Notes: generated by a model from the sequence alone, not told the origin. Counted from the first letter of the stretch, positions 6,471-50,114 are shown. The stretch is 64,000 nt of DNA from Candidatus Saccharimonadia bacterium (GCA_041743505.1 JBGTMQ010000017.1:85368-149367); one strand, 5' to 3'. Program-made: numbers and translations.

Positions 6471-6529
6471 ATTCTCAGTGTATCACCAGATATTCCGGCC
6501 GCTTGCCTGTGCGCTATAATGCATGCATT

Positions 6530-7486: not shown

Positions 7487-7635
7487 TTACGTGGCCCTGT
7501 CATCCGGTCCAAAAACCGTTTCAGTAACTTCGTGCCAAGTCTAAACAGAACAATTCTTACAATCCATCGCATCAATACCGCCATATCTGACCTCCATCAG
7601 GTTACATTAACCCGTCCACCAACCGGATAAATCAG

Positions 7636-7998: not shown

Positions 7999-8118
7999 AC
8001 CCACACTATATGTCAGCAACTTACATTTAGCCACGGGAACCATAAATGTAAGTTCATTACATTTAGCGAGTGGACACAGGGAGAACACTCACGAGTCAGA
8101 CTAATATCCAGCACGACC

Positions 8119-19581: not shown

Positions 19582-19725
19582 CCGCTCTATTATAATTACC
19601 TTGCCAAAAGTGTCAATTGGTGGCATATTATCCAAGGACAAACCGGTCGCATCACCAGTCAGCCCGCACCTACTCATCTGGCAGGTCCAAAAGACGCTGC
19701 CAAGACTACGCAAAGGAGCATAACC

Positions 19726-30686: not shown

Positions 30687-30716
30687 TTGACATATAGGTA
30701 AATAACATGATATAAT
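30687..30716 (+). promoter_or_regulatory. sigma70-like promoter overlapped by a 16-bp inverted repeat
   Basis: TTGACA-17/18-ATATAAT. The perfect IR AATAGACACTCATATC(N14)GATATGAGTGTCTATT at 30643..30688 overlaps the -35. Confidence 0.5.
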
Positions 30717-35462: not shown

Positions 35463-35906
35463 CTACTGAGCGTTATTCAACGCATTGATGACGAACTGGA
35501 CCGCTGCGAAGGACAAGATGGCTACCACGATACCCACGATGGCGTAGGTGATGGTGTTCTTGGCCGCTTCAACGTTCTTCGGATCACCATTGGAGACAGC
35601 GTAGCGCAGACCACCAACGATCAAAAACAGCACCGCTACGGCACCGACCAGGAAGATCAAAGTGTTAGCAGCCACCTGGAAGATGCCACCCTGACCAAAC
35701 AAGTTATCTTTGGTGCCATCAGCCTGCGAACATGCCGCTCCACTACTGATATTCAAGTTGGTGGTATTACAGTCGCCTTGCGCAGCCAAAGCCGGCGCCG
35801 GAGCCATCGTCGCGACGGTGGCCAAGCTAAAAACTCCAAACCCAAAGGCGAGAGTAAGAGCCTGAAATGTTACGGCAATTTTCTTGCCAAGAGTTGTGAT
35901 GCTCAT
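35463..35906 (-). CDS. VirB2/TrbC-like pilin paralog 1 (signal peptide plus two C-terminal TM helices)
   Basis: 147 aa. N-terminal signal-like segment, then LIFLVGAVAVLFLIVGGLRYAVSNGDPKNVEAAKNTITYAIVGIVVAILSFAAVQF. Two hydrophobic helices separated by a short basic loop is the VirB2-type topology. Confidence 0.55.
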   Translation of the reverse strand: MSITTLGKKIAVTFQALTLAFGFGVFSLATVATMAPAPALAAQGDCNTTNLNISSGAACSQADGTKDNLFGQGGIFQVAANTLIFLVGAVAVLFLIVGGLRYAVSNGDPKNVEAAKNTITYAIVGIVVAILSFAAVQFVINALNNAQ

Positions 35907-35988
35907 CTGAACCTAAAGACTCCTTTATAATTTCAATCAGTTAGTTTGAGCTGAATTTACCATAAGCATAAGGCAAAAGGCAAATCAT

Positions 35989-36306
35989 CTACTTATTGAA
36001 GGTTGTAACCACGAAGTTAACGATTGCGTATGCGGCAATGGCCAAAATAAGACCAATTACTGAGTACAAAATGGTGTTTCGTGCAGCTTCTGCCTGCTTA
36101 GGATCACCATTCGACGTTATGTAGCGCAAGGCCCCAATAATAATCATTATAACCGCCAGCGCACCGATCAAAAAAATCAGCGCGTTCGAAACAGCCGAAA
36201 AAATGACATTGATGTCTTTATTACCACAAGCCGTTTTGCAAGCGGCACCGGCACCACCACCAATAACGTTTGTAGCGTTATCGGCTAATTTAAAAAACTT
36301 TTCCAT
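35989..36306 (-). CDS. VirB2/TrbC-like pilin paralog 2
   Basis: 105 aa; LIFLIGALAVIMIIIGALRYITSNGDPKQAEAARNTILYSVIGLILAIAAYAIVNF. No obvious signal peptide. Confidence 0.55.
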   Translation of the reverse strand: MEKFFKLADNATNVIGGGAGAACKTACGNKDINVIFSAVSNALIFLIGALAVIMIIIGALRYITSNGDPKQAEAARNTILYSVIGLILAIAAYAIVNFVVTTFNK

Positions 36307-36322
36307 GAAACCTAAATACTCC

Positions 36323-36628
36323 TTAACTTAGTCTGGTACCAATAAACGTAACAGCCGCATACGCAGCAATAGCCACAACGAGGCCCACAATGGCATAAAT
36401 AATCGTTTCGCGGCCTTGCTTGACACGGGTTGGGCTACCAGCCGCTGTCACAATCTGAAGACCACCAACGATGATAAAGATTATCGCCAAAGCGCCGATA
36501 ATGTAAACCAGTAGTTCCACTATGTTACCTAAAGCGTCACTTACGTTCTGGGTAGAGTCCGGCAGCCCGGTCTCACCTTTGAGCGATATTCCCGCTACAT
36601 ATAGGTGGGTCAAAGCCGACTGCATCAT
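36323..36628 (-). CDS. VirB2/TrbC-like pilin paralog 3
   Basis: 101 aa; LVYIIGALAIIFIIVGGLQIVTAAGSPTRVKQGRETIIYAIVGLVVAIAAYAAVTF. Confidence 0.5.
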   Translation of the reverse strand: MMQSALTHLYVAGISLKGETGLPDSTQNVSDALGNIVELLVYIIGALAIIFIIVGGLQIVTAAGSPTRVKQGRETIIYAIVGLVVAIAAYAAVTFIGTRLS

Positions 36629-36975
36629 TAGAACCTACTCGCAATAAACGTGACCCCAGCGTATGCCACCATCACGATAATCAGCCCGGTTACAGCTTGA
36701 GTTATAATCTCTTTGGCCCGCTTCAGCCGCGCCGGGTCACCAATCGCCGTCACATAATAAATGCCGCCCACAATAATAAAAATCACCGCCAGGGCGCCGG
36801 CGAAAGCCATGAGAATCCGAACGAGATTGCCCAAAATAATAATGATGTCATAGACACCCGTAATCTTAACGTCATTACCAGGACAGCTAATACCGTCCCA
36901 AATACTCGGAAAAATTCCTGTCTTAGTGCCGCATGCATTGGCTGCCACTTTAAAGAACTGAAGTATCGGCTCCAT
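36628..36975 (-). CDS. VirB2/TrbC-like pilin paralog 4
   Basis: 115 aa; AFAGALAVIFIIVGGIYYVTAIGDPARLKRAKEIITQAVTGLIIVMVAYAGVTF. Its stop and start overlap the neighbouring genes. Confidence 0.5.
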   Translation of the reverse strand: MEPILQFFKVAANACGTKTGIFPSIWDGISCPGNDVKITGVYDIIIILGNLVRILMAFAGALAVIFIIVGGIYYVTAIGDPARLKRAKEIITQAVTGLIIVMVAYAGVTFIASRF

Positions 36976-37485
36976 CTACAGAATTCCTCCCGGTACCACG
37001 AAGCTTAGTATCGCAAAGGCTAGTATGAACAAAACCAAGGCCGTAACGGCATTTATCAGCCGGTCCTTCGCATCAGTAATTGCCTTGGGATCGCCATTAG
37101 ACACGATGTACTGGATACCCGCCACAATCACCATCAAAACTACTGCCGCGCCAACCGTAGCGGACAAGAACTGCAAAATGGTTTTCAGGTAATTAACAAC
37201 TATGCCGCCACCACTATTATCGACGCAATTTGAACCACCGCCCGGGTTTTTCGTAATCGGGACACCAATAGCCACCTGCCCTTCCGGACAGGTAATGTTA
37301 GACGGCTGTGGCGCTGTAGCACACTCGTTGATATTGCCGGAAGTGTCACAGGCCGGTTCCGCAGCCAAAGCCACCGTCGGCAAAGCTAGCGTCGGCAAAG
37401 CTAGCGCCGTAACTGCCGCCACAGTCAGTAAAATTTTGGCCAGGAAGCGTCTCATTGGCTGAAATTGTAGCCAAGCCCAAAGCAT
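36976..37485 (-). CDS. VirB2/TrbC-like pilin paralog 5 (signal peptide with a tandem-repeat segment)
   Basis: 169 aa; ...VGAAVVLMVIVAGIQYIVSNGDPKAITDAKDRLINAVTALVLFILAFAILSF. Signal peptide LALPTLALPTVALAA is encoded by an 18-nt tandem DNA repeat. Alternative start at Met 37455. Confidence 0.5.
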   Translation of the reverse strand: MLWAWLQFQPMRRFLAKILLTVAAVTALALPTLALPTVALAAEPACDTSGNINECATAPQPSNITCPEGQVAIGVPITKNPGGGSNCVDNSGGGIVVNYLKTILQFLSATVGAAVVLMVIVAGIQYIVSNGDPKAITDAKDRLINAVTALVLFILAFAILSFVVPGGIL

Positions 37486-37528: not shown

Positions 37529-40051
37529 TTGTTGATTGTGTTTTTGGTGAATCACATCTGGGGGAGGGCAGCTAGACAATCGCTGTGGGCGATCCTGTTT
37601 GCTGTGCTCTTGTGCCTGGTGCCTCAAGCCGTTTCCGCCGCCGGCGAATCCTACACCTGGCAAGGCACAGGTGACGCCAGCATTGTAGCCTCCGGCGGTA
37701 ACTTCGGGGTCAATAAAACCACCTTCGCCAAGACCGCCGACGCCGGCGGAAGCGCCACCTTTACCGCCAACGCCACCTATGAATGTAGCGGCAAAACCGT
37801 CACCGGCCCGCTTACCATCACAGTGGCTGCCGACAAGTACAAAAAAGCCTACCCCACCGAAGGAAGCGTTACGGGCGCCGGCGCTGCCTGTGCCTTTACG
37901 GCCGCGGTAATCAGCAAAGCCAACGTCGATCAGGTCACCGGCCAGCCCGTCCCCGCCGCCGGCCAGGACCCACGGGAAAGCTGCGACCAAGGCGGGTTTA
38001 CCTGGCTGTTCTGCCCCGTCATCGACAATATATCCTCAGCCGTTGCCGGCCTGGCCCGGGACGTGCTGGGGCCCATGCTTGAGGTCAAACCAATCAGCCC
38101 AGAAACCACACCGGATCTCTACAAAACCTGGACTCATATCCGTGACTTTGCTGTAGTCCTGTTTATTCTCGTGTTTTTTGCCATTATCGGCGCCACACTC
38201 ATACAACAAGATATCGGCGGCTTCGACCAATATACCGTCAAAAAGATCTTGCCCCGACTGGTTATTGCCTCAATCATGGTACAGTTTAGCTTCCTCATCT
38301 CAGGCATTATTGTCGATATCGGAAATGTCCTTGGAGGTGGCATCGGCCACTTGCTGTCTGCGGTCACTGATCCATCCAAAGGCCCGGCCAGCTTCACCAA
38401 CCTGGTCGGCAACCTGGTCACCGGAAGTGTAGCCTCGGTTGCAGGACTGGGCGCCGTCGCCGTCCTGGCGTCGTGGACTGTCGCAATCCCTGTGCTGCTC
38501 GGCCTGCTCTTGAGCCTGCTGACCGTCTTCCTGACGCTTGGCGCCCGCTTCCTCATCCTGGCCGTCCTGATCGCCATCTCACCGATAGCCATGCTCGCCT
38601 GGGTCCTCCCGAACACTCGCGATTTTGCCGCCGCCTGGTTCGAGTTTTTCGTCCGGCTCGTCCTAATGTACCCGCTGGTTATCCTCATCATCTCCGTAGC
38701 CGGCATCGTCAACCAAATACTGCCGTTTAGTGGCGACACCGCCAATAGCGGCAGCGCAGCAGTCGCAGTAGCCCTCATCAAGCCGCTTGTCGTCATTGCC
38801 GCCTTCCTCATTATTCCCATCAGCTTCAAGCTCGCCGGGCTAGCCCTGAGCCGTATCCATGGCCTGCTCACCGGCGTTGCCCAACAGGGTAAAGGCCTCA
38901 TCAAGGGCAGCGATATGTACCAACGGGGCCTCGAGGACCGTCAGGGACGCAAGAATACCTACATGGGCCGCGTCCTCAACTCCAAAACCATCAGCTCACT
39001 CCAAAATAAGGGGCGCGGCGGCCAAGCAGTCGGCGGTTTCATGAGCGGCGCCGCCGCCGTAGCCTTAATGCGCGCCCCCGCCAGCAAAGCCGCTTTGCAA
39101 CGCAGTAACTCTGCACTAGTGGCCAAGCGGGAAAAGAATCTGACCGAAATCAAAGAGGCCCAAAACCCCAACAACCTCAAAGCCGCTTTAGCCGCCATGA
39201 ATGGCGACGAAAGCGCCCGGGCCAAGCTGCAAAGAACCGCTCCAGACTTACTCCGCCTGGCTTCAACCGCTTCCGGCCGCGAAGCCATGTTCAACCGCCT
39301 TCTCGCCACTGAGTTCGCCGACAGCAAAGACCTTGACCAGTTCCGCACAACCGCACCAAAACGCGGCCTCAAATACTTTGGTGTCACCGGTGATACATCC
39401 GCGGAATGGCGCTCCCTGCGTGACGCCGGCCAGGCCAAACGTAACCAGTTACCGACCATCGTACAGCGGCTCGAACAAGCCAAAACCTACGACGTGGTTG
39501 ACCGCGCCGGCAACACGCTCAAGACCATTTCCCGTGACATGGGCGCCGTTGATATGAATGGCGTCTCCAAGTCATTCGCCAAATACACCGCTGCCAAGCT
39601 GGCCGATGTCTCGCCGGATGTCTTTGAAATGATGACCGACACCGCCAACCCAATCGCCGCCATGGATGCTGCCGAGGCCATGGCCATTGGATTGGAGCCA
39701 CGGCAACTCGCCAAAGTCTTCGACCCCAATGACCGCAACCCGGCTCCCCCTGAGCGCAAGATCGCTATCGCTAAAGCTATGCGGGCCCAATATGAGAACG
39801 TCTGGAACACCAACGATGAATACCGCTCCACCTTCGACGCCATGCATCATCAATTGGTCCGCGACGACAAGCTTGGCGTCCAGCTAACCCGTACCGCCGG
39901 CGCCACCGAAACCCAGCTCCGTGCCCTCTCAAACGAAGGCCAATCCTACGTTGCCTCGCGCTGGCTCAAAGACAAGAACTTCAAGTACTCAGATCTAAGC
40001 GGCATGACCGTCGCCGACATCAACGCCGCCGGCCATGCCCTCCGGAGATAA
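37529..40051 (+). CDS. VirB6/TrbL-like polytopic T4SS membrane protein with long hydrophilic C-terminal extension (paralog A)
   Basis: TTG start (the exact start is uncertain). Signal peptide, then a Cys-containing exported segment (CDQGGFTWLFCPVIDN), at least 6 TM helices (DQYTVKKILPRLVIASIMVQFSFLISGIIVDIGN...), then a ~400-aa Ala/Lys-rich soluble tail. Confidence 0.55.
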   Translation: MLIVFLVNHIWGRAARQSLWAILFAVLLCLVPQAVSAAGESYTWQGTGDASIVASGGNFGVNKTTFAKTADAGGSATFTANATYECSGKTVTGPLTITVAADKYKKAYPTEGSVTGAGAACAFTAAVISKANVDQVTGQPVPAAGQDPRESCDQGGFTWLFCPVIDNISSAVAGLARDVLGPMLEVKPISPETTPDLYKTWTHIRDFAVVLFILVFFAIIGATLIQQDIGGFDQYTVKKILPRLVIASIMVQFSFLISGIIVDIGNVLGGGIGHLLSAVTDPSKGPASFTNLVGNLVTGSVASVAGLGAVAVLASWTVAIPVLLGLLLSLLTVFLTLGARFLILAVLIAISPIAMLAWVLPNTRDFAAAWFEFFVRLVLMYPLVILIISVAGIVNQILPFSGDTANSGSAAVAVALIKPLVVIAAFLIIPISFKLAGLALSRIHGLLTGVAQQGKGLIKGSDMYQRGLEDRQGRKNTYMGRVLNSKTISSLQNKGRGGQAVGGFMSGAAAVALMRAPASKAALQRSNSALVAKREKNLTEIKEAQNPNNLKAALAAMNGDESARAKLQRTAPDLLRLASTASGREAMFNRLLATEFADSKDLDQFRTTAPKRGLKYFGVTGDTSAEWRSLRDAGQAKRNQLPTIVQRLEQAKTYDVVDRAGNTLKTISRDMGAVDMNGVSKSFAKYTAAKLADVSPDVFEMMTDTANPIAAMDAAEAMAIGLEPRQLAKVFDPNDRNPAPPERKIAIAKAMRAQYENVWNTNDEYRSTFDAMHHQLVRDDKLGVQLTRTAGATETQLRALSNEGQSYVASRWLKDKNFKYSDLSGMTVADINAAGHALRR

Positions 40052-40084
40052 AACTGCTCACCAGAGCCACAAACCACAAGCAGT

Positions 40085-40113
40085 TTGACATTTTTGTAGG
40101 CTTGGTGTATAAT
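40085..40113 (+). promoter_or_regulatory. consensus sigma70 promoter
   Basis: TTGACA-17 nt-TATAAT read directly in the sequence, about 100 nt upstream of the 40212 gene. Confidence 0.6.
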
Positions 40114-40211
40114 GTAGTTATGATTTGGAAGCAATACTAAAACTCCAAATCTGTTGATCCGGCATCCGCTGGATTTGACAACTCACGAGACATAGCCCGA
40201 GGGGGGCCGAA

Positions 40212-40907
40212 ATGTCTGCACCACTGAAGGACCAGCCACGGCTATACGAGACGCCGGCCTCACCGCCGGCTCGCGACAAGTTCCGGCACCGTCACCCAGT
40301 TATCTTCTGGGGCTTGATCTTAAGCCCGGTGCCATTACTTATCATTGCCTTCATGGCATTGGTACTACTGGCCAGCGCGCTGCCTGATGTCCCATCCGCG
40401 GCATCACCAGCTCCCGGCAGCATCAGCTCCACCCAGGGACAGGTAACCGCGCCGGCGCCACAGCGGGCCGACCCCACCAAGCAATACGATCTGTCCACGC
40501 CCACGGGTAAGATCGCGGCCTCAGATGCAATTGTGGCCATGGGCCCGCTCAAGACTGAATACTACCTCGATGCTACCGCCAGCGAGGTCGAAATCCGGGA
40601 CTGGGTCATAGACGTCGTGTTCATGCACTGCAACCCTTCAAACCGCTTTACCCGGTTTGACCTTCTGGCGCCGAACATCATTGCCGATCCCGTCCCCGGG
40701 AATTCGGTATATGATCTCTTCGACAACTGTGCCACTATCGGCACTCCAACCACGCAGTACCAGTACATGCTCAACCCCGTTCCAAATAAACCGGTCCGCC
40801 AGTACGACTGGGTCCTGGTCCGCCCGGGTCAACCGGACACCATGGCCACCGTACACCTCACCTGGAGGTCTGACCATTGGCTCATCACGGCAGTCAGCCC
40901 CCACTGA
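40212..40907 (+). CDS. hypothetical bitopic membrane protein (VirB8-like topology)
   Basis: 231 aa. Short cytoplasmic N-terminus, one TM helix, ~160-aa extracytoplasmic domain. The size and topology resemble VirB8, but no sequence motif confirms it. Confidence 0.4.
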   Translation: MSAPLKDQPRLYETPASPPARDKFRHRHPVIFWGLILSPVPLLIIAFMALVLLASALPDVPSAASPAPGSISSTQGQVTAPAPQRADPTKQYDLSTPTGKIAASDAIVAMGPLKTEYYLDATASEVEIRDWVIDVVFMHCNPSNRFTRFDLLAPNIIADPVPGNSVYDLFDNCATIGTPTTQYQYMLNPVPNKPVRQYDWVLVRPGQPDTMATVHLTWRSDHWLITAVSPH

Positions 40908-41013
40908 CCAGTCCGCGAAACAGCCCGCCCTAGCGACGTAGATACCCATCTACGGAGCTAGGGCATTTTTTGTTTTGATACATTGATTCCGCTCATGCTA
41001 AAATCGAGTCATC

Positions 41014-43716
41014 ATGGTGGATCAAACAGCAGCGGGCAAGCGCTTTATGAACCAGCGGTCTTCCGTCTGGCAACGAACCGTTTTTGGCCTCGCGCTAATC
41101 GCCGTCAGCCTCCTTGGCAACCTGCTGCTCATTGCCACAGCTTCGGCCGCCCCCGGCCGCCCCGAGGTCTACACGAAAATCAGCGAAGACGTCATTGCAG
41201 TCACAGGCGGCTATTTCGTAGACAAAACCTACAACCTTACGAAAATTCCAGGCACAAATAACTACCGGGGCGGTGTCCATGCCCCGGAATTTGACTATCC
41301 GTTCGCCAAATGTCTCTTTAGACACACCATCAACGTCGACGACGCCAATCCCCACAAAGGTGTAGTTGAAATCGAAACGGGCTTCGGAAACGGCAGCAAC
41401 TGTACCACCCAGCCTGAGAACTTTGAATGGGGCCCCGTCATCATCGCCCAGCCAGGTCAAACCCAAGAACAAGCCGCCGCTGCCGCCGGTGGTGGCGGTG
41501 CCGCCGGAGCCAATGAAATCGTAGCCACCTGCGACGCCGGCGCCTTCACCTGGCTCCTCTGCCCATTCATCGTCATCGCCCAAGACGGTGTCCGGATCCT
41601 CCAGGGCTGGGTCGAAAACGTCCTCGTCGTCACCCCGTTCAATACCAGCTCCCCGCTCTATTCCGCCTGGTCCGCCTTCCGCAACCTGGCCGACGTCTTC
41701 TTCGTCCTCATTTTCTTCGTCATCATCTTTGGCACCGGCCTCGGTCTAGACAACTACACTGTCAAAAAGATCCTGCCACGCTTAATAGCTGCCGCCATCC
41801 TCGTCCAATTTTCATACATCCTCTCCAGTATCGCCGTCGATTTCTCTAACATACTAGGTCTCGGTTTAAGCCAACTTGTTGCGTCAGCTGTGCCCGCCCA
41901 GTTTAACGCCGAGAAGAGTACCTATCTCCAGGTTGCTGCCCCCATTGCCGGCCTTCTAACCCTTGGTGTGGCCGGCGGAACCATTATCGCCATTGGCGCA
42001 CTGGTACCCGTTATGCTAGCTCTCGCTTCTGCATTCCTATCAATGCTAGCAGTCTTCGTCACGCTCGAGATCCGGCTTATCCTCATCAACTTCCTGGTTG
42101 TTATCTCCCCATTCGCCTTTGTATTCTGGGTACTACCCAACACCCAGCAGTATTTCAAAATGTGGTGGGAATATTTCAGCAAACTCCTTTTAATGTTCCC
42201 AATCATCATGCTCATGTTCACCGCCGCCAACCTGTTCAACCAAGTCACCATCACCACCAACACCGGCGACTTTAACGGCGACATAGCCAAAAACATCATT
42301 GCCTCCCTCCTGCCAATCTTCGTCTTCTTCCTCGTACCAGCCACCTTTAAACTCGCCGGCAGCGCCCTAGCCTTCGGCCATGGCTTAGTCACCCGAGCCG
42401 GCGGCGGTACCAACAAGGGCCTCCAAAGTGCCTTCTGGGGCAAGGATCAGCAGGAACGAAGCAAGCTTAAAGGTCAACAGAAACTTATGAATTTACGAGA
42501 CCAAGGACCTGCTAGCACCCGACTAGGTCGGTTTGCGCAAAACGCACAAAAACAAGCCGCTCAAAAACGTTCAGGATTCGGGTTTGGTGCCGATAAAGGC
42601 TTAAAGGGGCTTCAAATGAACCGAGCCCTCGATAAAACCGCCAGCGAACTCGCCCAATCGGCAGCAACAAAGGACTTCCACGCCCAGTACGGCAAACAAA
42701 CCTATGCGAATACTATGGCAAACCGCAAAGCAGCCGAAATGGACAAAATGCTCACTCAAAGCGCAAACGAAGCCTTCCTGAATCAAGAAGTAGATGTTGG
42801 AGGGGTCAATCTAAAAATTAAAGATGTCAACCTAAACGAAAGCGGCATCAAATCACTGAAGGACAAGGTTAAATCAGCCCTCAGTGACGGCGACCACGCT
42901 ACAGCTATAGCCGCCATGACAAAGCTCAGTCAATCGCAAAGCGGCGAAGACGCACTACAACAGCTTCGGGCAGATCCAAATGTATTCGGAGGCACAGACA
43001 CTGAACCTGTAATAAATAAGTTAAAAGATGTTTGGTCAAAAGGCACTGCAAACGCCAAAAGTCCTGACTTTAAAAAACCACCACAGAATGCCTGGAGCGA
43101 CCTAAGCCAAGAAGAAATAACAAGCATGAGCAATAAACAAGTAAATCGTGCTCTTGAGTATTACAATCGGAACGCTAGTGATCCAAAAGCACAAAAAGCT
43201 GCCAAACAATTTAGCGATAACTTCCAGAAAATACTTGCTAACCCTAACACCGCCAGCAAAATTAATCCGGATAGTGTTGATGCCGTCCAAAATTATCAGT
43301 GGGCCAAAGACACGACTACCGGCAAAGTCCTTACAGGGACTCCGCATCAAGACAGAACAGTATTTAGTAGCACCTCAGACTACCAGGCAGCAGCACATGC
43401 AGCTTCGTTATATACCAAACCGGGTTCAGCCACACCACCCCCAGCACAACCAGCCCCTCAGCCCGCAGCTCCACCACCACAACCAACTCCAACTCCGCTT
43501 ACACAACCAACCGTCAACGTAAATGTCCAGCCGACAAAGCCGACTATCATAACCGCTCCTCGCGCCGGTACACAGTTCCAACAGCCAACTCCTGGCTCCC
43601 TCTACGTCCCGAGCTCATACCAACCACCAACCACCAACCCGCGGCCACCCAAGGTTGATGTTGCCGTCGAAGAACACCGTGACGATCAAATCGGTGACGA
43701 CCGTAGTATCAGCTAA
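41014..43716 (+). CDS. VirB6/TrbL-like polytopic T4SS membrane protein with long hydrophilic C-terminal extension (paralog B)
   Basis: Paralog of 37529..40051 (CDAGAFTWLLCPFIV...; DNYTVKKILPRLIAAAILVQFSYILSSIAVDFSN...). 900 aa, with a Pro/Gln/Thr-rich C-terminus. Alternative start at Met 41047. Confidence 0.55.
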   Translation: MVDQTAAGKRFMNQRSSVWQRTVFGLALIAVSLLGNLLLIATASAAPGRPEVYTKISEDVIAVTGGYFVDKTYNLTKIPGTNNYRGGVHAPEFDYPFAKCLFRHTINVDDANPHKGVVEIETGFGNGSNCTTQPENFEWGPVIIAQPGQTQEQAAAAAGGGGAAGANEIVATCDAGAFTWLLCPFIVIAQDGVRILQGWVENVLVVTPFNTSSPLYSAWSAFRNLADVFFVLIFFVIIFGTGLGLDNYTVKKILPRLIAAAILVQFSYILSSIAVDFSNILGLGLSQLVASAVPAQFNAEKSTYLQVAAPIAGLLTLGVAGGTIIAIGALVPVMLALASAFLSMLAVFVTLEIRLILINFLVVISPFAFVFWVLPNTQQYFKMWWEYFSKLLLMFPIIMLMFTAANLFNQVTITTNTGDFNGDIAKNIIASLLPIFVFFLVPATFKLAGSALAFGHGLVTRAGGGTNKGLQSAFWGKDQQERSKLKGQQKLMNLRDQGPASTRLGRFAQNAQKQAAQKRSGFGFGADKGLKGLQMNRALDKTASELAQSAATKDFHAQYGKQTYANTMANRKAAEMDKMLTQSANEAFLNQEVDVGGVNLKIKDVNLNESGIKSLKDKVKSALSDGDHATAIAAMTKLSQSQSGEDALQQLRADPNVFGGTDTEPVINKLKDVWSKGTANAKSPDFKKPPQNAWSDLSQEEITSMSNKQVNRALEYYNRNASDPKAQKAAKQFSDNFQKILANPNTASKINPDSVDAVQNYQWAKDTTTGKVLTGTPHQDRTVFSSTSDYQAAAHAASLYTKPGSATPPPAQPAPQPAAPPPQPTPTPLTQPTVNVNVQPTKPTIITAPRAGTQFQQPTPGSLYVPSSYQPPTTNPRPPKVDVAVEEHRDDQIGDDRSIS

Positions 43717-43739: not shown

Positions 43740-43768
43740 TTGCTAATTATTAGTAAATATGCTATAAT
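43740..43768 (+). promoter_or_regulatory. sigma70 promoter with extended -10
   Basis: TTGCTA-17-TGcTATAAT upstream of the 43846 gene. Confidence 0.55.
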
Positions 43769-43845
43769 AAATAATCTATTTGTGCTTCTTTTTTATATGA
43801 ACACATATAGCGCCCCCGACAGCCTCGACAAGACAGGAAAAGCTA

Positions 43846-44532
43846 ATGAGCAAGCAAGGTTGGGAAGCGTACAAAGCAGACGCCCTCAAGCGGCTTGAAG
43901 GTCGTGACGTACAAGCGCCGAGTCAACCAACCCAGACGCTGGGTCAGACACCTCAAGCGCCAACGACTGCACAGGCACCAACTGCTGAGTTTGATCCTGC
44001 GGCAGCATTCCGCGCACACCAAGCCACCGAGCAAACACGTCAACGTGAGCTCGCACAACAGCACGCAGCAGAACGTGAGCTTACTCAAACAAGAGCCCGA
44101 GAGCTTTCAGCTTTCATCGAACGCCTTCGGATGCTCCTGTCCAAAAAAGGCTCACCTGGGCTAACAAGCTTCGAGATTCAGTTAACATATTCCATGTATG
44201 AACCAGCGGTACGGCGAAGGAGTGGTCGTATAATTTCTCCCGAAAAAGAAACACCCCCGACATATCGGACAGAATGGGGCTGGGAGATTGCAAGTATTCA
44301 AGGCCCCGGTGACTATATCTCGTCGCCTCGTTATAATCTCATGCTCTGTAGAGATGGAGCACTATGGGTTACTCTTGGAGCTAGAACATACCTCGATATA
44401 AGTGACGAAACCGGCAATTTCACCCTGACTTGCCGACAAACATCACTTTCACTAGCTAGGCTAGAAGCCGACATCATTCCGGGAGTGGCGAGGTTAGTTG
44501 ATAACCTCAATCTCCAGTGGGATGGCAACTAG
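43846..44532 (+). CDS. hypothetical protein, cassette paralog 1 (candidate T4SS-associated substrate)
   Basis: 228 aa. N-terminus MSKQGWEAYKADALKRLEGR, then a Q/P/T-rich low-complexity segment, a coiled coil, and a C-terminal globular domain (TEWGW.IA...NLMLC.DG.LWVTLG...DIIPGV.RL...L.WDGN). No signal peptide. Confidence 0.5.
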   Translation: MSKQGWEAYKADALKRLEGRDVQAPSQPTQTLGQTPQAPTTAQAPTAEFDPAAAFRAHQATEQTRQRELAQQHAAERELTQTRARELSAFIERLRMLLSKKGSPGLTSFEIQLTYSMYEPAVRRRSGRIISPEKETPPTYRTEWGWEIASIQGPGDYISSPRYNLMLCRDGALWVTLGARTYLDISDETGNFTLTCRQTSLSLARLEADIIPGVARLVDNLNLQWDGN

Positions 44533-44540
44533 CTGTCCAC

Positions 44541-44575
44541 CCCGCCCCTTGCGAACTGCAGGGGGTCTTATTATT
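44541..44575 (+). terminator. conserved terminator element, copy 1
   Basis: CCACCCCGCCCCTTGCGAACTGCAGGGGGTCTTATTATTT: stem CCCCTTGC/GCAGGGGG plus a T-run. Confidence 0.6.
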
Positions 44576-44630
44576 TACCAATAAATGCTCCGCAAAGCCG
44601 CTGTTTGTGGGCGAATTCCTTCTTACACGC

Positions 44631-44659
44631 TTGCAAGAATTGCAGAAATATGTTATAAT
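44631..44659 (+). promoter_or_regulatory. sigma70 promoter with extended -10
   Basis: TTGCAA-17-TGtTATAAT. The -10 region ATGTTATAATTAACTAT is nearly identical to the one at 32421..32437. Confidence 0.55.
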
Positions 44660-44722
44660 TAACTATCTATCACTCTCCTGAGTTGTTAGTGCACCAACTT
44701 CCGCTACAGACAGGACAACCCG

Positions 44723-45388
44723 ATGAGCAAGCAAGGCTGGGAATCGTACGTACAAGATGCCCTCAAGCGACTCAAAGCACGTCAGGCGCCTACAACAAGT
44801 CAACCAACCCAACTGGCTCAGCCTAGCCAGCCAGCTTCAACATCTAGGGACCCTGCAACCCAACTTCGAGCACATCAAGCTGAAATGCAAACTCGTCAAC
44901 GTGAGGAAACGAAACGCCAAGCGACCGAGCTCCTAGAAGCTGAGCAAGAAAACCAAGAGCTGGCAGCCTTCCTAGAACGGCTTCAACGCTTTTTGTTGAA
45001 GCACAACTCACCAGGACTATCAAGCTTCAGTATTCAAACTGGCGGCCACGAAAATAAGAAACTACCTTCAGAGCCCACGGGTCCGCTAGCCGGACGGAGG
45101 AAAGAAGATACAACTTACTCGGTGCCAATAAGCCGAACTGAATGGGGTTGGCAAATAGCCACCCAGAGAGATAGCAGTGGCGAGTCACCAAATACCAACC
45201 TCATGTTGTGTCAGGACGGAACACTTTGGGTTACGCTCGGGTCTACCGTCTACTTTGATGGTTCAGATGGAACCGGCCGGCACACTCTAGGCCACAAAAC
45301 AATTGACACGGTCGGTCTATACATCGATATCATCCCTGGCGTCACCCGACTCCTAAGCGAGCTCGGTCTAGAGTGGGATGGCAACTAA
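44723..45388 (+). CDS. hypothetical protein, cassette paralog 2
   Basis: 221 aa, same architecture as 43846..44532 (MSKQGWESYVQDALKRLKAR...TEWGWQIA...NLMLCQDGTLWVTLG...DIIPGVTRL...LEWDGN). Confidence 0.5.
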   Translation: MSKQGWESYVQDALKRLKARQAPTTSQPTQLAQPSQPASTSRDPATQLRAHQAEMQTRQREETKRQATELLEAEQENQELAAFLERLQRFLLKHNSPGLSSFSIQTGGHENKKLPSEPTGPLAGRRKEDTTYSVPISRTEWGWQIATQRDSSGESPNTNLMLCQDGTLWVTLGSTVYFDGSDGTGRHTLGHKTIDTVGLYIDIIPGVTRLLSELGLEWDGN

Positions 45389-45398
45389 CCCATCAGCC

Positions 45399-45432
45399 CC
45401 GCCCCCTGCGAAACTGCAGGGGGTCTTTTTAA
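45399..45432 (+). terminator. conserved terminator element, copy 2
   Basis: CAGCCCCGCCCCCTGCGAAACTGCAGGGGGTCTTTTT. Confidence 0.6.
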
Positions 45433-45452
45433 TAAAAACATACGCGTAAAGA

Positions 45453-45481
45453 TTGACAAAATATTAAATACAATATATAAT
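45453..45481 (+). promoter_or_regulatory. consensus sigma70 promoter
   Basis: TTGACA-17-TATAAT upstream of the 45578 gene. Confidence 0.6.
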
Positions 45482-45577
45482 ATAGGATTCAACAACTGCA
45501 TTAGCCGTACCGCCGCCTGCAGCAAGACGAAACTTTTCATCGATACCGATAACACCTCCGATCTGAAAGGCTAAATC

Positions 45578-46240
45578 ATGTGGCCCTTCCGTAACCGACG
45601 AACCAGAATGCAGCCCACTACAGACAAAGGCGAACCAACGAGCTTGATGGGCTGGAGAAGCAACCGTGCCAAGCGAATCGCAGAGGTACAAGCACGAACC
45701 GCCGAAAGACGCAAGCGAACCGCAGAAGTACAAGCACGAACCCTTGCAAGACTACGTCGAACCTTGGGTCCTCAGAGTGTATCAACTGACTCTGCTACAT
45801 CCAATCTTGCATCCACTGGCTCCTCAAATACGACCGACACAGTCAGCGTATTCGATCGGGCGAAGCAAGCCGCTCAAGCGGACGACGCTGCTAGCACTCA
45901 GATTGCTGCTGCTCGCTATCAGGAAGACGCGGATGCCGTTCAAGCAGCAGCCGCTGATTGGTTTATCCGCATGGGCGTGAGGCCAGTACCGGTAACAACC
46001 GGCAGAGGCGGGGGAGTAGATGTAGAATTTCTCACCGCTTACTGGGAACTAGAAGGACGGAGCTTCCGGGGTACTATGTTACTAACCGGCAGTGGCTCTT
46101 ATGGAACCCTCAGGGTTGAGATCAAAGTAGAGCCAGTATGGTGCAGCTATCCAAAAGGTCGCTGTCAATACTGCCCTCACGAAAGCTGGAGAGATGCAAA
46201 CAACTTGACGGAGTTAGGTCTAGCTCTCCGTAGTTCTTAA
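45578..46240 (+). CDS. hypothetical protein, cassette gene 3 (basic N-terminus with tandem repeat)
   Basis: 220 aa. N-terminal Arg-rich segment with a ~39-nt DNA tandem repeat (AEVQARTAERRKR / AEVQARTLARLRR). Unrelated to paralogs 1 and 2 but flanked by the same promoter and terminator architecture. Confidence 0.45.
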   Translation: MWPFRNRRTRMQPTTDKGEPTSLMGWRSNRAKRIAEVQARTAERRKRTAEVQARTLARLRRTLGPQSVSTDSATSNLASTGSSNTTDTVSVFDRAKQAAQADDAASTQIAAARYQEDADAVQAAAADWFIRMGVRPVPVTTGRGGGVDVEFLTAYWELEGRSFRGTMLLTGSGSYGTLRVEIKVEPVWCSYPKGRCQYCPHESWRDANNLTELGLALRSS

Positions 46241-46249
46241 CCCGTCCAC

Positions 46250-46287
46250 CCCCGCCCCTTGCGAAACTGCAAGGGGCCTTCTTTTTA
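46250..46287 (+). terminator. conserved terminator element, copy 3
   Basis: CCACCCCCGCCCCTTGCGAAACTGCAAGGGGCCTTCTTTTT. Confidence 0.6.
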
Positions 46288-46506: not shown

Positions 46507-47352
46507 ATGGGACAGTATAAAGTTCCTCAAGACGTCGAGTCCGAAGATAAAATCCTTGGGCCGTTAACGTTCAAACAGTTTATTTACGCCTTGGTCGGGT
46601 TCGGTTGGGCCATCGTGTGCTTTGGTGTTTTTCAAAAAATACCTGTTGTAATGATTTTATTGGGATTGCCGCCTACAACGCTATTCTTGCTGCTGGCTTT
46701 TTACCGGCGCGATGGCCAGAACTTCGAGCAATTACTCATCGCCATGGTCGGCTTCTTCGGTAACGACCGCAAACGGCTCTGGCGCAAGGATGACGTGGCG
46801 GAGACGTTCCACATTGAGCCGCACAAGATCATCAAGGAGCAGAGCCAGCGCAACCCGGTCGAAGTCCGCAGTGAGCTAGAGCGCCTGGCTACCATGATCG
46901 ACGCCCGTGGCTGGAACCAAACGCCTGTCCCGGCCGCCGAGGTCATCTCGCCCATCGGCTACAATGCCGGCGACCGGCTGGTAGCACCGGACAGCACGCC
47001 GGCCAACAGCAACCTGCCCCAGCCTCAAGCCAGCGAAGACATGCTAGACCTACAACACAGCCCACTGGCCCAAAACCTGGCCAGCCTCATCGAGACGGCA
47101 GCTGCTGACGTCCGCGAAGAGGCCATCGGCCAAATGAAAGCCCGCCAAACCGCCGCCCAGCGTCAAGCCGCTACTGCCGCTGCCACTCCCGCCCAGAGCA
47201 TAAGCGGCGTGACAGCAACCAACCCGAACGATATAATGAGATTAGCAACGGAGAGGGATGACTTGACCGTCTCGCAGCTGGCCGCGACCGCCACTCGGAA
47301 CGCGCCCCTGCAAGAAGGTCAGTCAGTGAGTGTACGCGCAAATGGTCAATAA
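46507..47352 (+). CDS. VirB3/PrgI-like T4SS membrane protein
   Basis: An AGGAG RBS. Two closely spaced TM helices near the N-terminus (LTFKQFIYALVGFGWAIVCFGVF...VMILLGLPPTTLFLLLAFY), immediately upstream of the VirB4-like ATPase. Long hydrophilic C-terminal tail. Confidence 0.5.
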   Translation: MGQYKVPQDVESEDKILGPLTFKQFIYALVGFGWAIVCFGVFQKIPVVMILLGLPPTTLFLLLAFYRRDGQNFEQLLIAMVGFFGNDRKRLWRKDDVAETFHIEPHKIIKEQSQRNPVEVRSELERLATMIDARGWNQTPVPAAEVISPIGYNAGDRLVAPDSTPANSNLPQPQASEDMLDLQHSPLAQNLASLIETAAADVREEAIGQMKARQTAAQRQAATAAATPAQSISGVTATNPNDIMRLATERDDLTVSQLAATATRNAPLQEGQSVSVRANGQ

Positions 47353-48088
47353 CCAGTCAACCAGTAACCCAGCCAACACCGGCAAGAGCACTCAGGGCAG
47401 CTTGCTGATTTCTGAAATCAAAGACGGCGTGGTCGTAATGCGCGACGGCTCGTTGCGCGGCGTCATCCTCGGCTCGGCCATTAACTTCGACCTCATGAGC
47501 TCGCAGGAGCAGGAGGCCGTCGAATTTGCTTACCAGGGCTTTATTAACTCATTGCACTTTCCCGTCCAAATCAGTATCAAGAGCCAGAAAATAGACCTGG
47601 ACGGATATCTCGAAAAGTTAACCGCCCTGCGCAGTGCCCAGCCCAATGAGCTGCTCGGCCTGCTCATGGACGACTACATGGCTAACATCAAGGCCCTGGT
47701 CGACGAGGTCAACATTATGGACAAGCAGTTCTACGTCACCGTGCCGTTCTTCCCGCCGGTAAATCCCACCAAAACGGTTAGCCTCATTGCCGGCATCAAA
47801 GCCGCCTTACAACCCGTCCCGATTATTACGGTTGAAGAAGATGAGTTCAAAAAGTACAAGCAAGAGCTGTCGCAGCGCATGGCCTTGGTCTCAAGCGGCA
47901 TGTCCCAAATGGGCATCCGGGCGCTAGCCTTGGGTACCCAGGAGCTGGTTGACCTGTATTACGGCTGGTACAACCCGGATGTGGCCGTCAACGAGAAACT
48001 CATCGACACTTCACAGCTCACCTCACCGGTAGTTACCAAGGGTGACGGCGCCGCGCCCCGCGGACCATTACCGGGAGCACCAGTATGA
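47342..48088 (+). CDS. VirB4-like ATPase, N-terminal domain encoded as a separate ORF
   Basis: ISEIKDGVVVMRDGSLRGVILGSAINFDLMSSQEQEAVEFAYQGFINSLHFPVQISIKSQKIDLDGYLEKL matches the conserved VirB4/TrbE/CagE N-terminal region. The start overlaps the upstream stop. Confidence 0.55.
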   Translation: MVNNQSTSNPANTGKSTQGSLLISEIKDGVVVMRDGSLRGVILGSAINFDLMSSQEQEAVEFAYQGFINSLHFPVQISIKSQKIDLDGYLEKLTALRSAQPNELLGLLMDDYMANIKALVDEVNIMDKQFYVTVPFFPPVNPTKTVSLIAGIKAALQPVPIITVEEDEFKKYKQELSQRMALVSSGMSQMGIRALALGTQELVDLYYGWYNPDVAVNEKLIDTSQLTSPVVTKGDGAAPRGPLPGAPV

Positions 48089-48224: not shown

Positions 48225-50114
48225 ATGGCTATATTTGGCAAAAAACAAGAACCAATGACACCAGGCGGCCTGGCCGCAGCTCAACAAGCTCAAGAGCAGC
48301 GCGAAGCCGAGTTAATCTACCGCCAAGGCATTGTCACCATGCGCGACCTCATCGCGCCACCATCACTCGAGATCGAGTCAGGCTACATTCGGCTAGGCAA
48401 GCGCTTCGCCAAGACCATTTACGTCTACGGTTTTCCCCGCCAGGTCTTTACCGGCTGGCTATCGCCCATTATCAACCTGGACGAAATTATCGACATTTCG
48501 CTGTTTATTTATCCCGTAGAGAGCAAGGTCGTGCTGGAAAACCTGCGCAAAAAAGTCGGTCAGCTGGAGGCCAGTTACTCGATCAACCAGGAGAAGGGCA
48601 AAGTCCGCGACCCTGGACTCGAAGCCGCCATCCAAGACGCCGAGGAACTGCGTGACAAACTCCAGGTAGGGGAGGAGCGCTTCTTCCGCTTCGGCTTGTA
48701 CCTCACCATGTATGCCGATTCACTCGACGAGCTCACCCAAGTCACCCGCAAAATCGAGGGCATTTTCGGCCAGTCACTGGTCTACACCAAGCCGGCCACC
48801 ATGCAGATGGAGCAGGGCTTCAACTCCACCACACCGCTCGGCTCAGACCAGCTCGGCATCTCCCGCAACATGAACACCGGCGCCCTGTCTACCAGTTTCC
48901 CGTTCACCTCGGCCGAATTGAGCCGCAACGAAGGAGTGTTGTACGGCCTCAACCGGCACAACAACGGTTTGGTTTTGTTTGACCGCTTCTCGCTCGAAAA
49001 CGCCAACATGGTCGTGTTCGCCAAGTCCGGCGCCGGTAAGTCCTTCGCTATCAAGCTCGAAGCCCTACGTAGCCTCATGATGGGCACCGAAATCATCATC
49101 ATCGACCCGGAGAACGAGTACAAAACCCTCGCAGAGGCCGTCGGCGGCAGCTACCTGCGCCTGTCCCTGGCTGCCACCACCCGCATCAATCCCTTTGACC
49201 TGCCGCGCGTCTTTGACCAGGAAGAGGCCGACAACGCCTTGCAGGCCAACATTATCACTCTGCACGGCCTGCTGCGCCTCATGATGGGTGGTGCCTCCGT
49301 CAACACCACCACCGGCGCCACGCTCACCACACCACTGACTCCGGCCGAAGACGCCGACCTGGACGTGGCTATCATCAACACCTACGCCCGCGCCGGCATC
49401 ACCAAAGACCCGTTGACCCACAACGTCATGCCGCCAACCATGAATGACCTCTATAACACCCTGGCCTCCATGACCGGCAACGGCCCCGGACTGGCCCAGC
49501 GCCTGCGCAAATACACCACCGGCACATTCAGTGGTATCTTCTCAGAACAGTCCAACGTCAAACTCGACAACCCGTTCCTGGTCTTCAACATCCGCGACCT
49601 CGAAGACGAACTGCGGCCCGTCGGCATGTACATCGTCCTAAATTACATCTGGAACAAGGTCAAATCCGACAAGCGTAGGCGCATCCTCATCGTGGACGAG
49701 GCTTGGCAGCTCATGAAATACGACGACTCGGCTGCCTTCATGTTCTCTCTGGCCAAACGTGCCCGCAAGTACTTCCTCGGCCTTACCACCATCTCCCAGG
49801 ACGTGGAAGACTTCTTGAGTAACAAAATGGGCCGGGCAGTCGTGGCCAACTCCTCGCTACAGCTCTTGCTCAAGCAAGCCCCCAGCGCCATCGACATCGT
49901 GGCCGACACCTTCAAGCTCACCAGCGAGGAGAAAAACCGCCTCAGCCAGTTCCCGGTCGGTGAAGGATTGTTCTTTGCCGGTCTCAACCACGTCATCATT
50001 CGCATTCTCGCCTCACAAACCGAAGCCGAGCTCATCTCAACCAACCCGCAAGCTCTCCAAGCCGCCCGCCAGGAGCAGGCTGAGGCTGATGCCGGTCGCC
50101 AAGGAGCAGCCTGA
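48225..50114 (+). CDS. VirB4/TrbE-like T4SS ATPase, central and C-terminal ATPase part
   Basis: A GGGGAGGA RBS; Walker A FAKSGAGKSF; Walker B RRILIVDEAWQLM; conserved VirB4 middle region (IAPPSLEIESGYIRLGKRFAKTIYVYGFP). Confidence 0.8.
   Translation: MAIFGKKQEPMTPGGLAAAQQAQEQREAELIYRQGIVTMRDLIAPPSLEIESGYIRLGKRFAKTIYVYGFPRQVFTGWLSPIINLDEIIDISLFIYPVESKVVLENLRKKVGQLEASYSINQEKGKVRDPGLEAAIQDAEELRDKLQVGEERFFRFGLYLTMYADSLDELTQVTRKIEGIFGQSLVYTKPATMQMEQGFNSTTPLGSDQLGISRNMNTGALSTSFPFTSAELSRNEGVLYGLNRHNNGLVLFDRFSLENANMVVFAKSGAGKSFAIKLEALRSLMMGTEIIIIDPENEYKTLAEAVGGSYLRLSLAATTRINPFDLPRVFDQEEADNALQANIITLHGLLRLMMGGASVNTTTGATLTTPLTPAEDADLDVAIINTYARAGITKDPLTHNVMPPTMNDLYNTLASMTGNGPGLAQRLRKYTTGTFSGIFSEQSNVKLDNPFLVFNIRDLEDELRPVGMYIVLNYIWNKVKSDKRRRILIVDEAWQLMKYDDSAAFMFSLAKRARKYFLGLTTISQDVEDFLSNKMGRAVVANSSLQLLLKQAPSAIDIVADTFKLTSEEKNRLSQFPVGEGLFFAGLNHVIIRILASQTEAELISTNPQALQAARQEQAEADAGRQGAA

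Follow-up and report, generated by a model that had tools for sequence, protein, structure and literature searches.

The type IV secretion systems of Saccharibacteria

The closest described relatives of the locus reported here are the chromosomal type IV secretion systems (T4SSs) of Southlakia epibionticum ML1 and Nanosynbacter lyticus TM7x. Our subject is a 64-kb stretch of DNA from a Candidatus Saccharimonadia bacterium (GCA_041743505.1, JBGTMQ010000017.1:85368-149367; hereafter the window) and, within it, two very large genes, paralogs A and B. We consider it fairly likely that they encode two extended VirB6/TrbL membrane subunits of a chromosomal, oriC-proximal Saccharimonadia T4SS, with N-terminal domains that face outward and long C-terminal tails that serve as cytoplasmic scaffolds.

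In ML1 the genes run dnaA, dnaN, recF and, further on, VirB4 (SEML1_0008), SEML1_0009, PrgI (SEML1_0010), SEML1_0011 (998 amino acids), SEML1_0012 (278 amino acids), SEML1_0013 (1088 amino acids), the pilins SEML1_0014-0019 and Hsp20 (Wang 2023; PMC10633639). Structure-based annotation labelled SEML1_0013 'TrbL/VirB6' and SEML1_0011 'Type IV secretion system protein', and gave both a C-terminal α-solenoid ('ARM repeat') domain (Wang 2023). The T4SS locus is essential for epibiotic growth, and no coupling protein or relaxase was recognised in the system (PMC10633639). Transposon-insertion sequencing called SEML1_0011 and SEML1_0013 essential and the gene between them non-essential (Wang 2023). 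In these data SEML1_0011 keeps 43-46 of 109 insertion sites, at ~800-1100 normalised reads, through passaging, and SEML1_0013 falls from 58 sites to 5 (Wang 2023, Table S1); the persisting SEML1_0011 insertions would fit tolerance in part of the gene, such as a variable tail. For TM7x, a transcriptome preprint lists two virB6 genes (TM7x_00055 and TM7x_00060) and a virB8 gene (TM7x_00050), and reports that one virB6 is up-regulated at the first encounter with the host and the other in stable symbiosis. A 2025 survey of Patescibacteria T4SSs describes VirB6 homologues near virB4 and proximal to oriC, and refers to 'the detected virB6 gene' in ML1; neither duplication nor tails are taken up there. 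Among T4SSs, that of Saccharibacteria was the first found to be required for the growth of its own bacterium, and a 2025 nomenclature review states that the role of the extra domains in extended VirB6 proteins is not known.

The window matches SEML1_0001-0020 gene by gene, and A and B appear to occupy the positions of SEML1_0013 and SEML1_0011, respectively. It shares with ML1 and TM7x both phylum and chromosomal neighbourhood: dnaA-dnaN-recF, then VirB4, a TrsD-like gene, PrgI, a large gene, a gene of ~280 amino acids, a second large gene, pilins and Hsp20, with ValRS beyond. Orthology between the ML1 and window genes is by position only, and the ML1 proteins have 1088 and 998 amino acids as against 840 and 900 here. 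The window also differs from both in that three additional small genes separate B from PrgI. Given the order of SEML1_0013, SEML1_0012 and SEML1_0011 and the two virB6 genes annotated in TM7x, neither the system nor the gene pair is new, and what follows sharpens a question for two tractable models rather than adding a system. The accounts of the ML1 and TM7x T4SSs that we consulted contain no discussion of topology, of the contrast in conservation between A and B, or of a C-terminal motif. In the literature consulted on these T4SSs we did not find the conservation and clade-specificity of the A tail, the variability of B-type proteins at both ends with their often retained peptide, or the apparent independent duplication described below.

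A and B are paralogous, extended VirB6 proteins

The two genes are as follows.

37538..40051, plus strand: paralog A, extended VirB6/TrbL subunit; the open reading frame (ORF) opens at TTG 37529, and the probable start is GTG 37538
41014..43716, plus strand: paralog B, extended VirB6/TrbL subunit of 900 codons, homologous to A

The ORF of A counts 840 codons from 37529. The later GTG at 37538 is favoured as its start because a database entry (P0001) has 837 amino acids and because homologues share a conserved N-terminus (VF..x.IW…R.SL). For the B protein of the window, an exact-sequence database look-up gave no record.

A first-pass annotation of this DNA described the two products as very large VirB6/TrbL-like paralogs, and sequence comparison bears this out. 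BLASTP aligns A151-481 with B172-506 (~330 amino acids) at 37% identity, E 2e-59, and finds no A-B alignment outside these segments, tails included. When the profile of the A family was compared with that of the B family, the match had a probability of 100% and E 1e-76, and homology reached ~100 amino acids past the last transmembrane helix. A and B are paralogs, far beyond chance.

Membership of the VirB6 family was assessed with the TrbL/VirB6 hidden Markov model (PF04610), a check that the annotation had itself proposed. A reaches 27.9 bits, above the cut-off of 25.9, over residues 215-424 and profile positions 3-205 of 215. B joins the family through its homology to A and through relatives that carry the domain: TrbL was matched by 5 of the 25 relatives of B, and most relatives come with a TrbL_3 (PF19590) match precomputed. 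TrbL was the sole Pfam family matched. AlphaFold2 (AF2) models built from the family alignments have a mean predicted local distance difference test score (pLDDT) of 66.8 for A and 62.9 for B. When these models were compared with the PDB by Foldseek, the only recurring and coherent matches were the TrwI/VirB6 chains of plasmid R388, with chain 8rtd_L reaching a probability of 0.96 for A and 0.99 for B. The TrwI/VirB6 matches have TM-scores of 0.42-0.46 normalised to the target, over ~290 aligned columns, and 8rtd_L is the top PDB match of B (E 0.03). Sequence profiles of the A and B families found no meaningful match in the PDB, and no NCBIfam model matches A, B or the protein encoded between them.

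The helical core and the large hydrophilic domain expected of the extended subtype are present in both proteins. Extended VirB6 proteins are defined by at least 5 hydrophobic helices and one or more large hydrophilic domains in a central or C-proximal position (Alvarez-Martinez & Christie; PMC12857230). Hydropathy places the hydrophobic segments of A and of B in blocks of 2+3+2, and the core is helical in both AF2 models. Near-identical transmembrane stretches had been described in the first-pass annotation; YTVKKILPRLVIASIMVQFSFLIS and YTVKKILPRLIAAAILVQFSYILS are indeed present and agree at 19 of 24 positions, but the regular expression quoted for them is one residue off for A. The VirB6 family has a conserved tryptophan in a central cytoplasmic loop in Agrobacterium, according to PMC7648143. 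A nearly invariant W370 in the A family and an invariant W384 in the B family each follow an invariant PNT motif in a K/R-rich loop and may correspond to the Agrobacterium residue.

Genomic context points the same way. The window is chromosomal, carrying dnaA, dnaN, a recF-like gene, ValRS, a MurE-like gene, FemAB, TsaD and YidC. The genes around A and B form the series Hsp20, five divergent pilins, A, the middle gene, B, three small genes, PrgI, a TrsD/TraC-like gene and a VirB4-type ATPase; beyond VirB4 lie a 983-amino-acid membrane protein and a lysozyme/C39-like peptidase, then recF-dnaN-dnaA. The T4SS genes identified by profile matches are these.

35463..37485, minus strand: five small VirB2-like T4SS pilin genes (PF18895 T4SS_pilin matches), divergent from paralog A
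46507..47352, plus strand: PrgI/VirB3-like gene (Pfam PrgI, 1.8e-14)
47330..48088, plus strand: TrsD/TraC-like gene (NCBIfam TrsD, 1.1e-5)
48225..50114, plus strand: VirB4-type ATPase gene (Pfam TraG P-loop/AAA_10)

The locus is oriC-proximal and combines a VirB2-like pilin array, VirB6, PrgI, a TrsD-like gene, VirB4 and wall hydrolases, as in published accounts (Wang 2023; Quiñonero-Coronel 2025). A genome scan for related loci gave 9 loci, and a homologue search with the core profile gave 9 proteins, split variants among them. The order pilins, A, a gene of ~0.7-1.1 kb, B, PrgI, TrsD-like, VirB4, large protein, hydrolase recurs in 12 related loci, and the five-gene pilin array is kept in L001-L013. 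Homologues of A and B belong to metagenome-assembled genomes (MAGs) of Candidatus Saccharimonadia/Saccharibacteria. The T4SS context of A and B is unambiguous. Taken with the hidden Markov model matches and the structural models, it makes their place in the VirB6 family, and in its extended subtype, secure. No coupling protein or relaxase was seen among the annotated genes of the window. A tblastn comparison of A with 72,556 plasmids gave zero matches, which points to a lineage-specific chromosomal system with no recent acquisition from plasmids.

Relation to better-studied VirB6 proteins

TrwI/VirB6 of R388 (PDB 7O3V, 8RT9, 8RTD) and VirB6 of Agrobacterium tumefaciens share with A and B a polytopic helical core, the Pfam TrbL family and VirB3, VirB4 and VirB2 neighbours. 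The R388 protein is the best structural match of both models, and the N-out/C-in orientation that we infer for A and B is the one reported for Agrobacterium. In contrast to these two proteins, A and B are about three times larger and have, besides a tail of 400-450 amino acids, an exported N-domain with cysteines behind a cleavable signal peptide. Their system also differs in its monoderm host, in having no recognised VirB5, in having two copies of VirB6 and in the absence of a plasmid match by tblastn.

The Rickettsiales offer a parallel to the general design. Anaplasma (VirB6-1 to -4), Rickettsia (RvhB6), Ehrlichia and Wolbachia have several tandem virB6 paralogs in which a TrbL/VirB6 core is joined to large hydrophilic extensions, together with multiplied, divergent VirB2 pilins, in host-dependent organisms with reduced genomes. 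These are, however, diderm alphaproteobacteria, and no homology was detected between their extensions and those of A and B. The Anaplasma C-termini are rich in repeats and surface-exposed by experiment, whereas the A and B tails are non-repetitive, helical and predicted to be cytoplasmic.

A third comparison is with the PrgH or CD415-type proteins of the Gram-positive MPF-FATA (mating-pair formation) class, to which the Patescibacteria T4SS has been reported to be homologous (PMC12102498). Here the shared features are a monoderm T4SS, PrgI (VirB3-like), VirB4, wall hydrolases and VirB8-like NTF2 proteins, for which the middle gene is the candidate here. Most Patescibacteria VirB6 homologues are reported to match the MPF-T VirB6 profile, not PrgH. 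Pilin genes are present at our locus and absent from Gram-positive conjugation systems, and no relaxase or coupling protein was seen here.

A is conserved throughout, B varies outside its core

Each protein divides into a Sec signal peptide, a predicted exported N-terminal region, a polytopic core and a long tail.

37640..38125, plus strand: predicted exported N-terminal region of A, with a β-rich domain (residues 38-150) and a C-x9-C amphipathic helix (151-199)
38126..38827, plus strand: polytopic VirB6 core of A (residues 200-433), hydropathy blocks 2+3+2
38828..40048, plus strand: C-terminal tail of A (residues 434-840), K/R-rich next to the membrane and then folded into an all-α domain; predicted cytoplasmic
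41152..41664, plus strand: predicted exported N-terminal region of B, with a hypervariable domain (residues 47-170) and a C-x9-C helix (171-217)
41665..42360, plus strand: polytopic VirB6 core of B (residues 218-449), from hydropathy blocks 2+3+2, the family alignment and AF2
42361..43323, plus strand: helical tail domain of B (residues 450-770), with a K/R-rich start; predicted cytoplasmic
43324..43713, plus strand: disordered Pro/Thr/Gln-rich extension of B (residues 771-900), pLDDT 32-45

The signal peptides of the first-pass annotation were recovered in both proteins as an N-terminal hydrophobic stretch with an AxA site (…AVSA, then AGE, in A; …ASA, then APG, in B), as were its Cys-containing exported segments, SCDQGGFTWLFCP and TCDAGAFTWLLCP.

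Conservation runs the full length of the A-type proteins, with full-length homologues at 38-58% identity. In the N-terminal region, whose β-strands are modelled at pLDDT 72-80, four cysteines (C86, C121, C152 and C162) are invariant among 21 sequences, and all precede the first core helix. The core has a mean identity of 59% across the family and invariant R340 and P352 in addition to the PNT motif; it is modelled with low confidence because the alignment contains only 21 sequences. After the last transmembrane helix, a tail of ~407 amino acids aligns end to end across the family, at 38% identity in its proximal and 25% in its distal part. AF2 models this tail as compact, all helices with one small β-hairpin, at pLDDT 70-91. 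The annotation had called both tails Ala/Lys/Gln-rich, which holds for B; the A tail is instead rich in Ala, Leu and Arg, with Gln at only 5%. A phmmer search with the A tail alone against 1.84 billion representatives returned just 25 proteins, nearly all of 780-910 amino acids and matched at the same position, which indicates a domain specific to this clade of VirB6. Two TPR-like repeat proteins among the phmmer matches (P0061 and P0070) were judged to reflect composition and helical repeats, and homology was dismissed.

B-type proteins vary strongly outside the core, yet often keep an acidic C-terminal peptide. Among 25 sequences the B N-domain has a mean identity of 12% and a length from ~0 to more than 600 amino acids, so that it is essentially unalignable; its pLDDT in the window protein is below 40. 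It holds ~5 cysteines per protein, in addition to two invariant ones in the C-x9-C helix. The core, at 45% identity in the family, is modelled at pLDDT 86-94. The tail of ~450 amino acids is Ala/Gln/Lys-rich and has a family identity of 15-21%, with total protein lengths of 755-1485 amino acids; its helices (residues 476-770) reach pLDDT 70-92. Neither the A nor the B tail fold matched anything specific in the PDB by Foldseek. The Pro/Thr/Gln-rich end that had been noticed in B is borne out by the final 100 residues, which are 25% Pro and 13% Thr.

The protein closes with the acidic peptide GDDRSIS (43693..43713), in the context …IGDDRSIS, and an ending of the …PGDDRS[IV][SN] type recurs among its relatives: …PGDDRSIS/N in P0030, P0031, P0033-35 and L010, and …PGDDRSVS in L003. 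Related endings are …DDRSRP in P0032 and …SERLVDPRVEG[ED]xD… in L001 and L009. A match of B to the Bartonella BID domain (E 0.031, 15 bits), considered as an effector signal, was rejected as below the 29.5 cut-off.

The tails are predicted to remain in the cytoplasm

The first-pass annotation suggested that the tails may extend to the surface of the cell or to a host cell. In this arrangement they would be surface-exposed, would span the wall by means of the Pro/Thr-rich segment, or would be threaded through the T4SS, or cleaved and released by it, towards the host bacterium, as proposed for the extended VirB6 proteins of Rickettsiales. The Rickettsiales precedent on which the proposal drew is real: the C-terminal repeats of Anaplasma VirB6-3 and VirB6-4 are accessible to trypsin on intact cells (PMC7648143). 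The hypervariability of the B tail (15-21% identity beside a VirB4 that is ~90% identical) is also what would be expected of a host-facing part. Disordered Pro/Thr-rich segments resemble the wall-spanning linkers of monoderm bacteria, and a disordered acidic C-terminal peptide is reminiscent of the C-terminal secretion signals of T4SS substrates.

The charge distribution favours the opposite side. By the positive-inside rule, the basic loops of a membrane protein lie on its cytoplasmic side. In both families the number of K+R per 100 amino acids alternates along the chain: 5-8 in the N-domain, 16-23 in loop 1, 2-5 in loop 2, 17-24 in the loop from PNT to the tryptophan, 1-3 in loop 6 and 19-20 over the first 60 residues of the tail (19 in A). 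The start of the tail is thereby placed on the side of loop 1 and the tryptophan loop, opposite the exported N-domain, and the central block would make one or three membrane crossings. Cysteines follow the same division, with 4-7 per protein in the exported part, where the conserved pairs lie, and ~0 in the ~400 residues of the tail.

Two natural split genes bear on the same point. In L011 (JGI 3300053129 Ga0500628_000217) an A-type gene is divided at the core/tail junction by one in-frame TAG (7895..7903), with an ATG two codons further on. The read-through product aligns over its full length to the A family, and the separate tail ORF has no export signal; the split could reflect gene fission, a pseudogene, sequencing error or stop-codon read-through. 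In L012 (Logan SRR25158331_50795, 4091..6639) a single VirB6 is cut before the last transmembrane helix into ORFs of 429 and 419 amino acids with overlapping stop and start. Its second ORF has an acidic N-terminus, one transmembrane helix, a strongly basic stretch and then the tail, the arrangement of an N-out/C-in anchor. In the tail part of L012 no resemblance to the tail of A or of B was detected.

Canonical VirB6 agrees with this orientation: in Agrobacterium the N-terminus is periplasmic and the C-terminus cytoplasmic, in work cited in PMC7648143. Taking together the charge alternation, the restriction of cysteines to the N-terminal part, the split variants and the canonical topology, we regard it as likely that the tails of A and B are cytoplasmic (N-out/C-in). 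Extracellular tails are unlikely, and the conserved, compact, α-helical character of the A tail is a further point against them. With cytoplasmic tails, the variable N-domains are the predicted outward-facing, and thus host-facing, parts of these proteins, which corrects the reading of the tails as surface antigens or effectors.

A working model for two extended VirB6 subunits

We propose the following sequence of events. Once the signal peptide had been cleaved, the N-domain, variable in sequence and stabilised by disulfides, would lie outside the cell. From there, 5 or 7 membrane crossings (the charge pattern calls for an odd number) would lead to a K/R-rich linker and an α-helical domain of ~300-400 amino acids in the cytoplasm. 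By analogy with the VirB6 pentamer of R388, the cores may oligomerise into a membrane platform that serves both for assembly of the five VirB2-like pilins and for the passage of substrate. The outward N-domains could form a collar in contact with the cell wall, the pilus or the host. The tails may be scaffolds to which substrates or the VirB4/TrsD ATPase module dock; no coupling protein is recognisable in the system. In B, the helical domain and a disordered Pro/Thr-rich tether of ~130 amino acids would present the conserved acidic peptide as a short linear motif on a leash. A and B may assemble together into mixed oligomers or work at different stages, and the opposite regulation of the two TM7x virB6 genes is suggestive of such mixed or stage-specific assemblies.

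Several observations weigh against this model. The central hydrophobic block (66-72 amino acids) could cross the membrane 1, 2 or 3 times, and AF2 draws most of it as one long helix. By itself B has no Pfam family match above threshold, the Foldseek E-values are weak (0.03-1), and the core of A is the part modelled with low confidence. The docking role proposed for the tails is not backed by any specific structural match of their folds. Finally, at L007 (CAZDGK010000054.1, a Saccharimonadales MAG; 2249..5869) an A-type gene is followed directly by PrgI, with no middle gene or B at the locus; this contig is just 6.8 kb long, and both genes could lie elsewhere.

A more elaborate version can be drawn, which we offer as speculation and think quite unlikely to hold as a whole. 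The B tail, with its helical domain beneath the channel, would serve as an integral receptor or gate for substrate in place of the missing coupling protein, and its leash would bring the …S-x-R-L…PGDDRSIS segment to VirB4/TrsD, or into the channel as a plug or mimic of a secretion signal. Part of the tail would be threaded outward on contact with the host, the N-domains would set host range, and repeated duplication, as in L013 (below), would reflect selection for two-subunit channels.

The leads for work in Southlakia and TM7x are the contrast in conservation between A and B, a conserved, clade-specific and predicted cytoplasmic domain in A, a mutable, tethered C-terminal peptide in B, the natural split-gene variants and a probable independent duplication.

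Duplication and divergence of the VirB6 genes

Identity to the window differs from gene to gene across the related loci, and the neighbouring cytoplasmic components are much better conserved than A and B. In comparisons with L001-L010 it is 87-92% for VirB4, 70-82% for the TrsD-like protein, 51-64% for PrgI, 36-54% for A and 31-45% for the B core. The rate differences within this one operon-like cluster are striking, from the slow VirB4 to a middle gene that BLAST does not detect.

In a neighbour-joining tree of the core, the position-A proteins of the window's clade form one group in 100/100 bootstraps, and the position-B proteins form a poorly supported grade (8-27/100). A more distant, Saccharibacteria-type locus, L013 (Logan SRR16630537_441282, 1508..8182), has the arrangement VirB6, a gene of 302 amino acids, VirB6, and in the tree its two copies pair with each other (100/100). 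This suggests that VirB6 was duplicated independently in the L013 lineage, or that gene conversion occurred there, rather than one ancient duplication. The view of A and B as two clean, ancient orthologous groups was rejected on the same tree, which supports the A clade only. L012 and L015 have one VirB6 each, and L012 also has no middle gene.

Such single-copy loci raise the question of whether one of the two genes is a decaying or redundant duplicate, with a single working VirB6 and the long tail of the other no more than evolutionary debris. The very fast divergence of B-type N-domains and tails, the wide range of B lengths, the A-only arrangement at L007 and the 43-46 transposon insertions that SEML1_0011 retains through passaging would all fit such decay. 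Both ORFs of the window are, however, intact and keep all invariant core residues, and the pair is kept in at least 9 genomes, the distant L013 included. Useless genes of 2.5-4 kb would not be expected to persist in reduced genomes of less than 1 Mb; both ML1 genes were called essential by the hidden Markov model of Wang 2023, and both TM7x genes are expressed and regulated. The conserved C-terminal peptide of B likewise argues for selection on its tail. We regard redundancy of either copy as very unlikely and retain the reading of A and B as two functional subunits. It is less probable still, to the point of being hardly credible, that A and B are some other polytopic transporter and no part of a T4SS: the ABC-2 permease label K01992 that KEGG assigns to SEML1_0011 and SEML1_0013 (Wang 2023, Table S1), the lack of an NCBIfam match and a TrbL score for A barely over threshold are outweighed by TrbL as the sole Pfam match, VirB6 as the sole coherent structural match, and genes that invariably lie between the T4SS pilins and PrgI/VirB4 with no adjacent ABC ATPase.

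The middle gene and other neighbours

Between A and B lie a promoter and a small gene.

40085..40113, plus strand: perfect σ70-type promoter, TTGACA-17-TATAAT, score 12/12, upstream of the middle gene
40212..40907, plus strand: middle gene, encoding a bitopic protein of 231 amino acids with a transmembrane segment (residues 35-53), a low-complexity linker and a C-terminal domain of ~130 amino acids

Both the consensus promoter and the single-span protein had been picked out in the first-pass annotation, and both were found as described. A fast-evolving gene of 230-370 amino acids stands at the middle position in nine related loci; at 17-22% identity, such fast evolution leaves its copies unconnected by BLAST. 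Every copy ends in a '…W-x-[IVL]…' strand, and the middle protein of the window has no Pfam match. SEML1_0012 was annotated NTF2-like, with its best match, e4ec6, being TraM, a VirB8-type protein (Wang 2023, Table S2). VirB8-like proteins consist of an N-terminal membrane anchor and an NTF2-like domain beyond the cytoplasm. Synteny with SEML1_0012 and TM7x_00050 makes a VirB8-like, NTF2-like component plausible at this position. A profile built from 8 positional homologues (which include L001-L003, L006 and L008-L010) weakly matched Bacillus subtilis YoeB/IseA (PDB 2rsx, 8i2e), with E 0.0075 over the whole C-terminal domain, and PDB entry 3bb9 (E 0.9), which we take to be NTF2-like. YoeB/IseA is a proteinaceous inhibitor of the DL-endopeptidase autolysins of B. 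subtilis. The IseA match, together with the wall hydrolases of the locus, suggests as an alternative that the middle protein may inhibit or regulate a wall hydrolase.

The region 43740..46280, between B and PrgI, holds three small ORFs for soluble proteins.

43846..44532, plus strand: 228 amino acids
44723..45388, plus strand: 221 amino acids
45578..46240, plus strand: 220 amino acids

The 228- and 221-amino-acid proteins are clear paralogs, with a common start (MSKQGWE.Y) and a common end (…L.WDGN). Every one of the three genes has its own promoter-like site, of which the one at 45453..45481 is a perfect consensus, and downstream of each gene lies a near-identical terminator hairpin, GCCCC[TC]TGCGAA(A)CTGCA[GA]GGGG with a T-run (44544, 45401, 46254). 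The proteins have no Pfam or NCBIfam match, and the genes are not found between B and PrgI in any related locus examined. They are candidate cargo, effector or immunity cassettes.

Directly after VirB4, the 983-amino-acid ORF (50137..53088, plus strand) encodes a protein whose long N-terminus is disordered and Gly/Pro/Ser-rich; a transmembrane segment lies near residue 145, ahead of a large C-terminal portion. The protein has no Pfam, NCBIfam or PDB sequence match. By eye, its C-terminus contains a pattern HxxxxxxD…HxH (…H-DKGRAV-D … H-I-H…) resembling that of LAS/M15 zinc peptidases. Positional counterparts have 839-1034 amino acids and diverge fast (23-28% identity).

Perfect TTGACA-N16-18-TATAAT promoters occur in the window at 19589..19616 (minus strand), 30687..30716 (plus), 40085..40113 (plus) and 45453..45481 (plus). 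These four compare with 0.01 expected from shuffled sequence in 64 kb, and selected genes of the organism seem to be served by σ70 consensus sites of the textbook kind.

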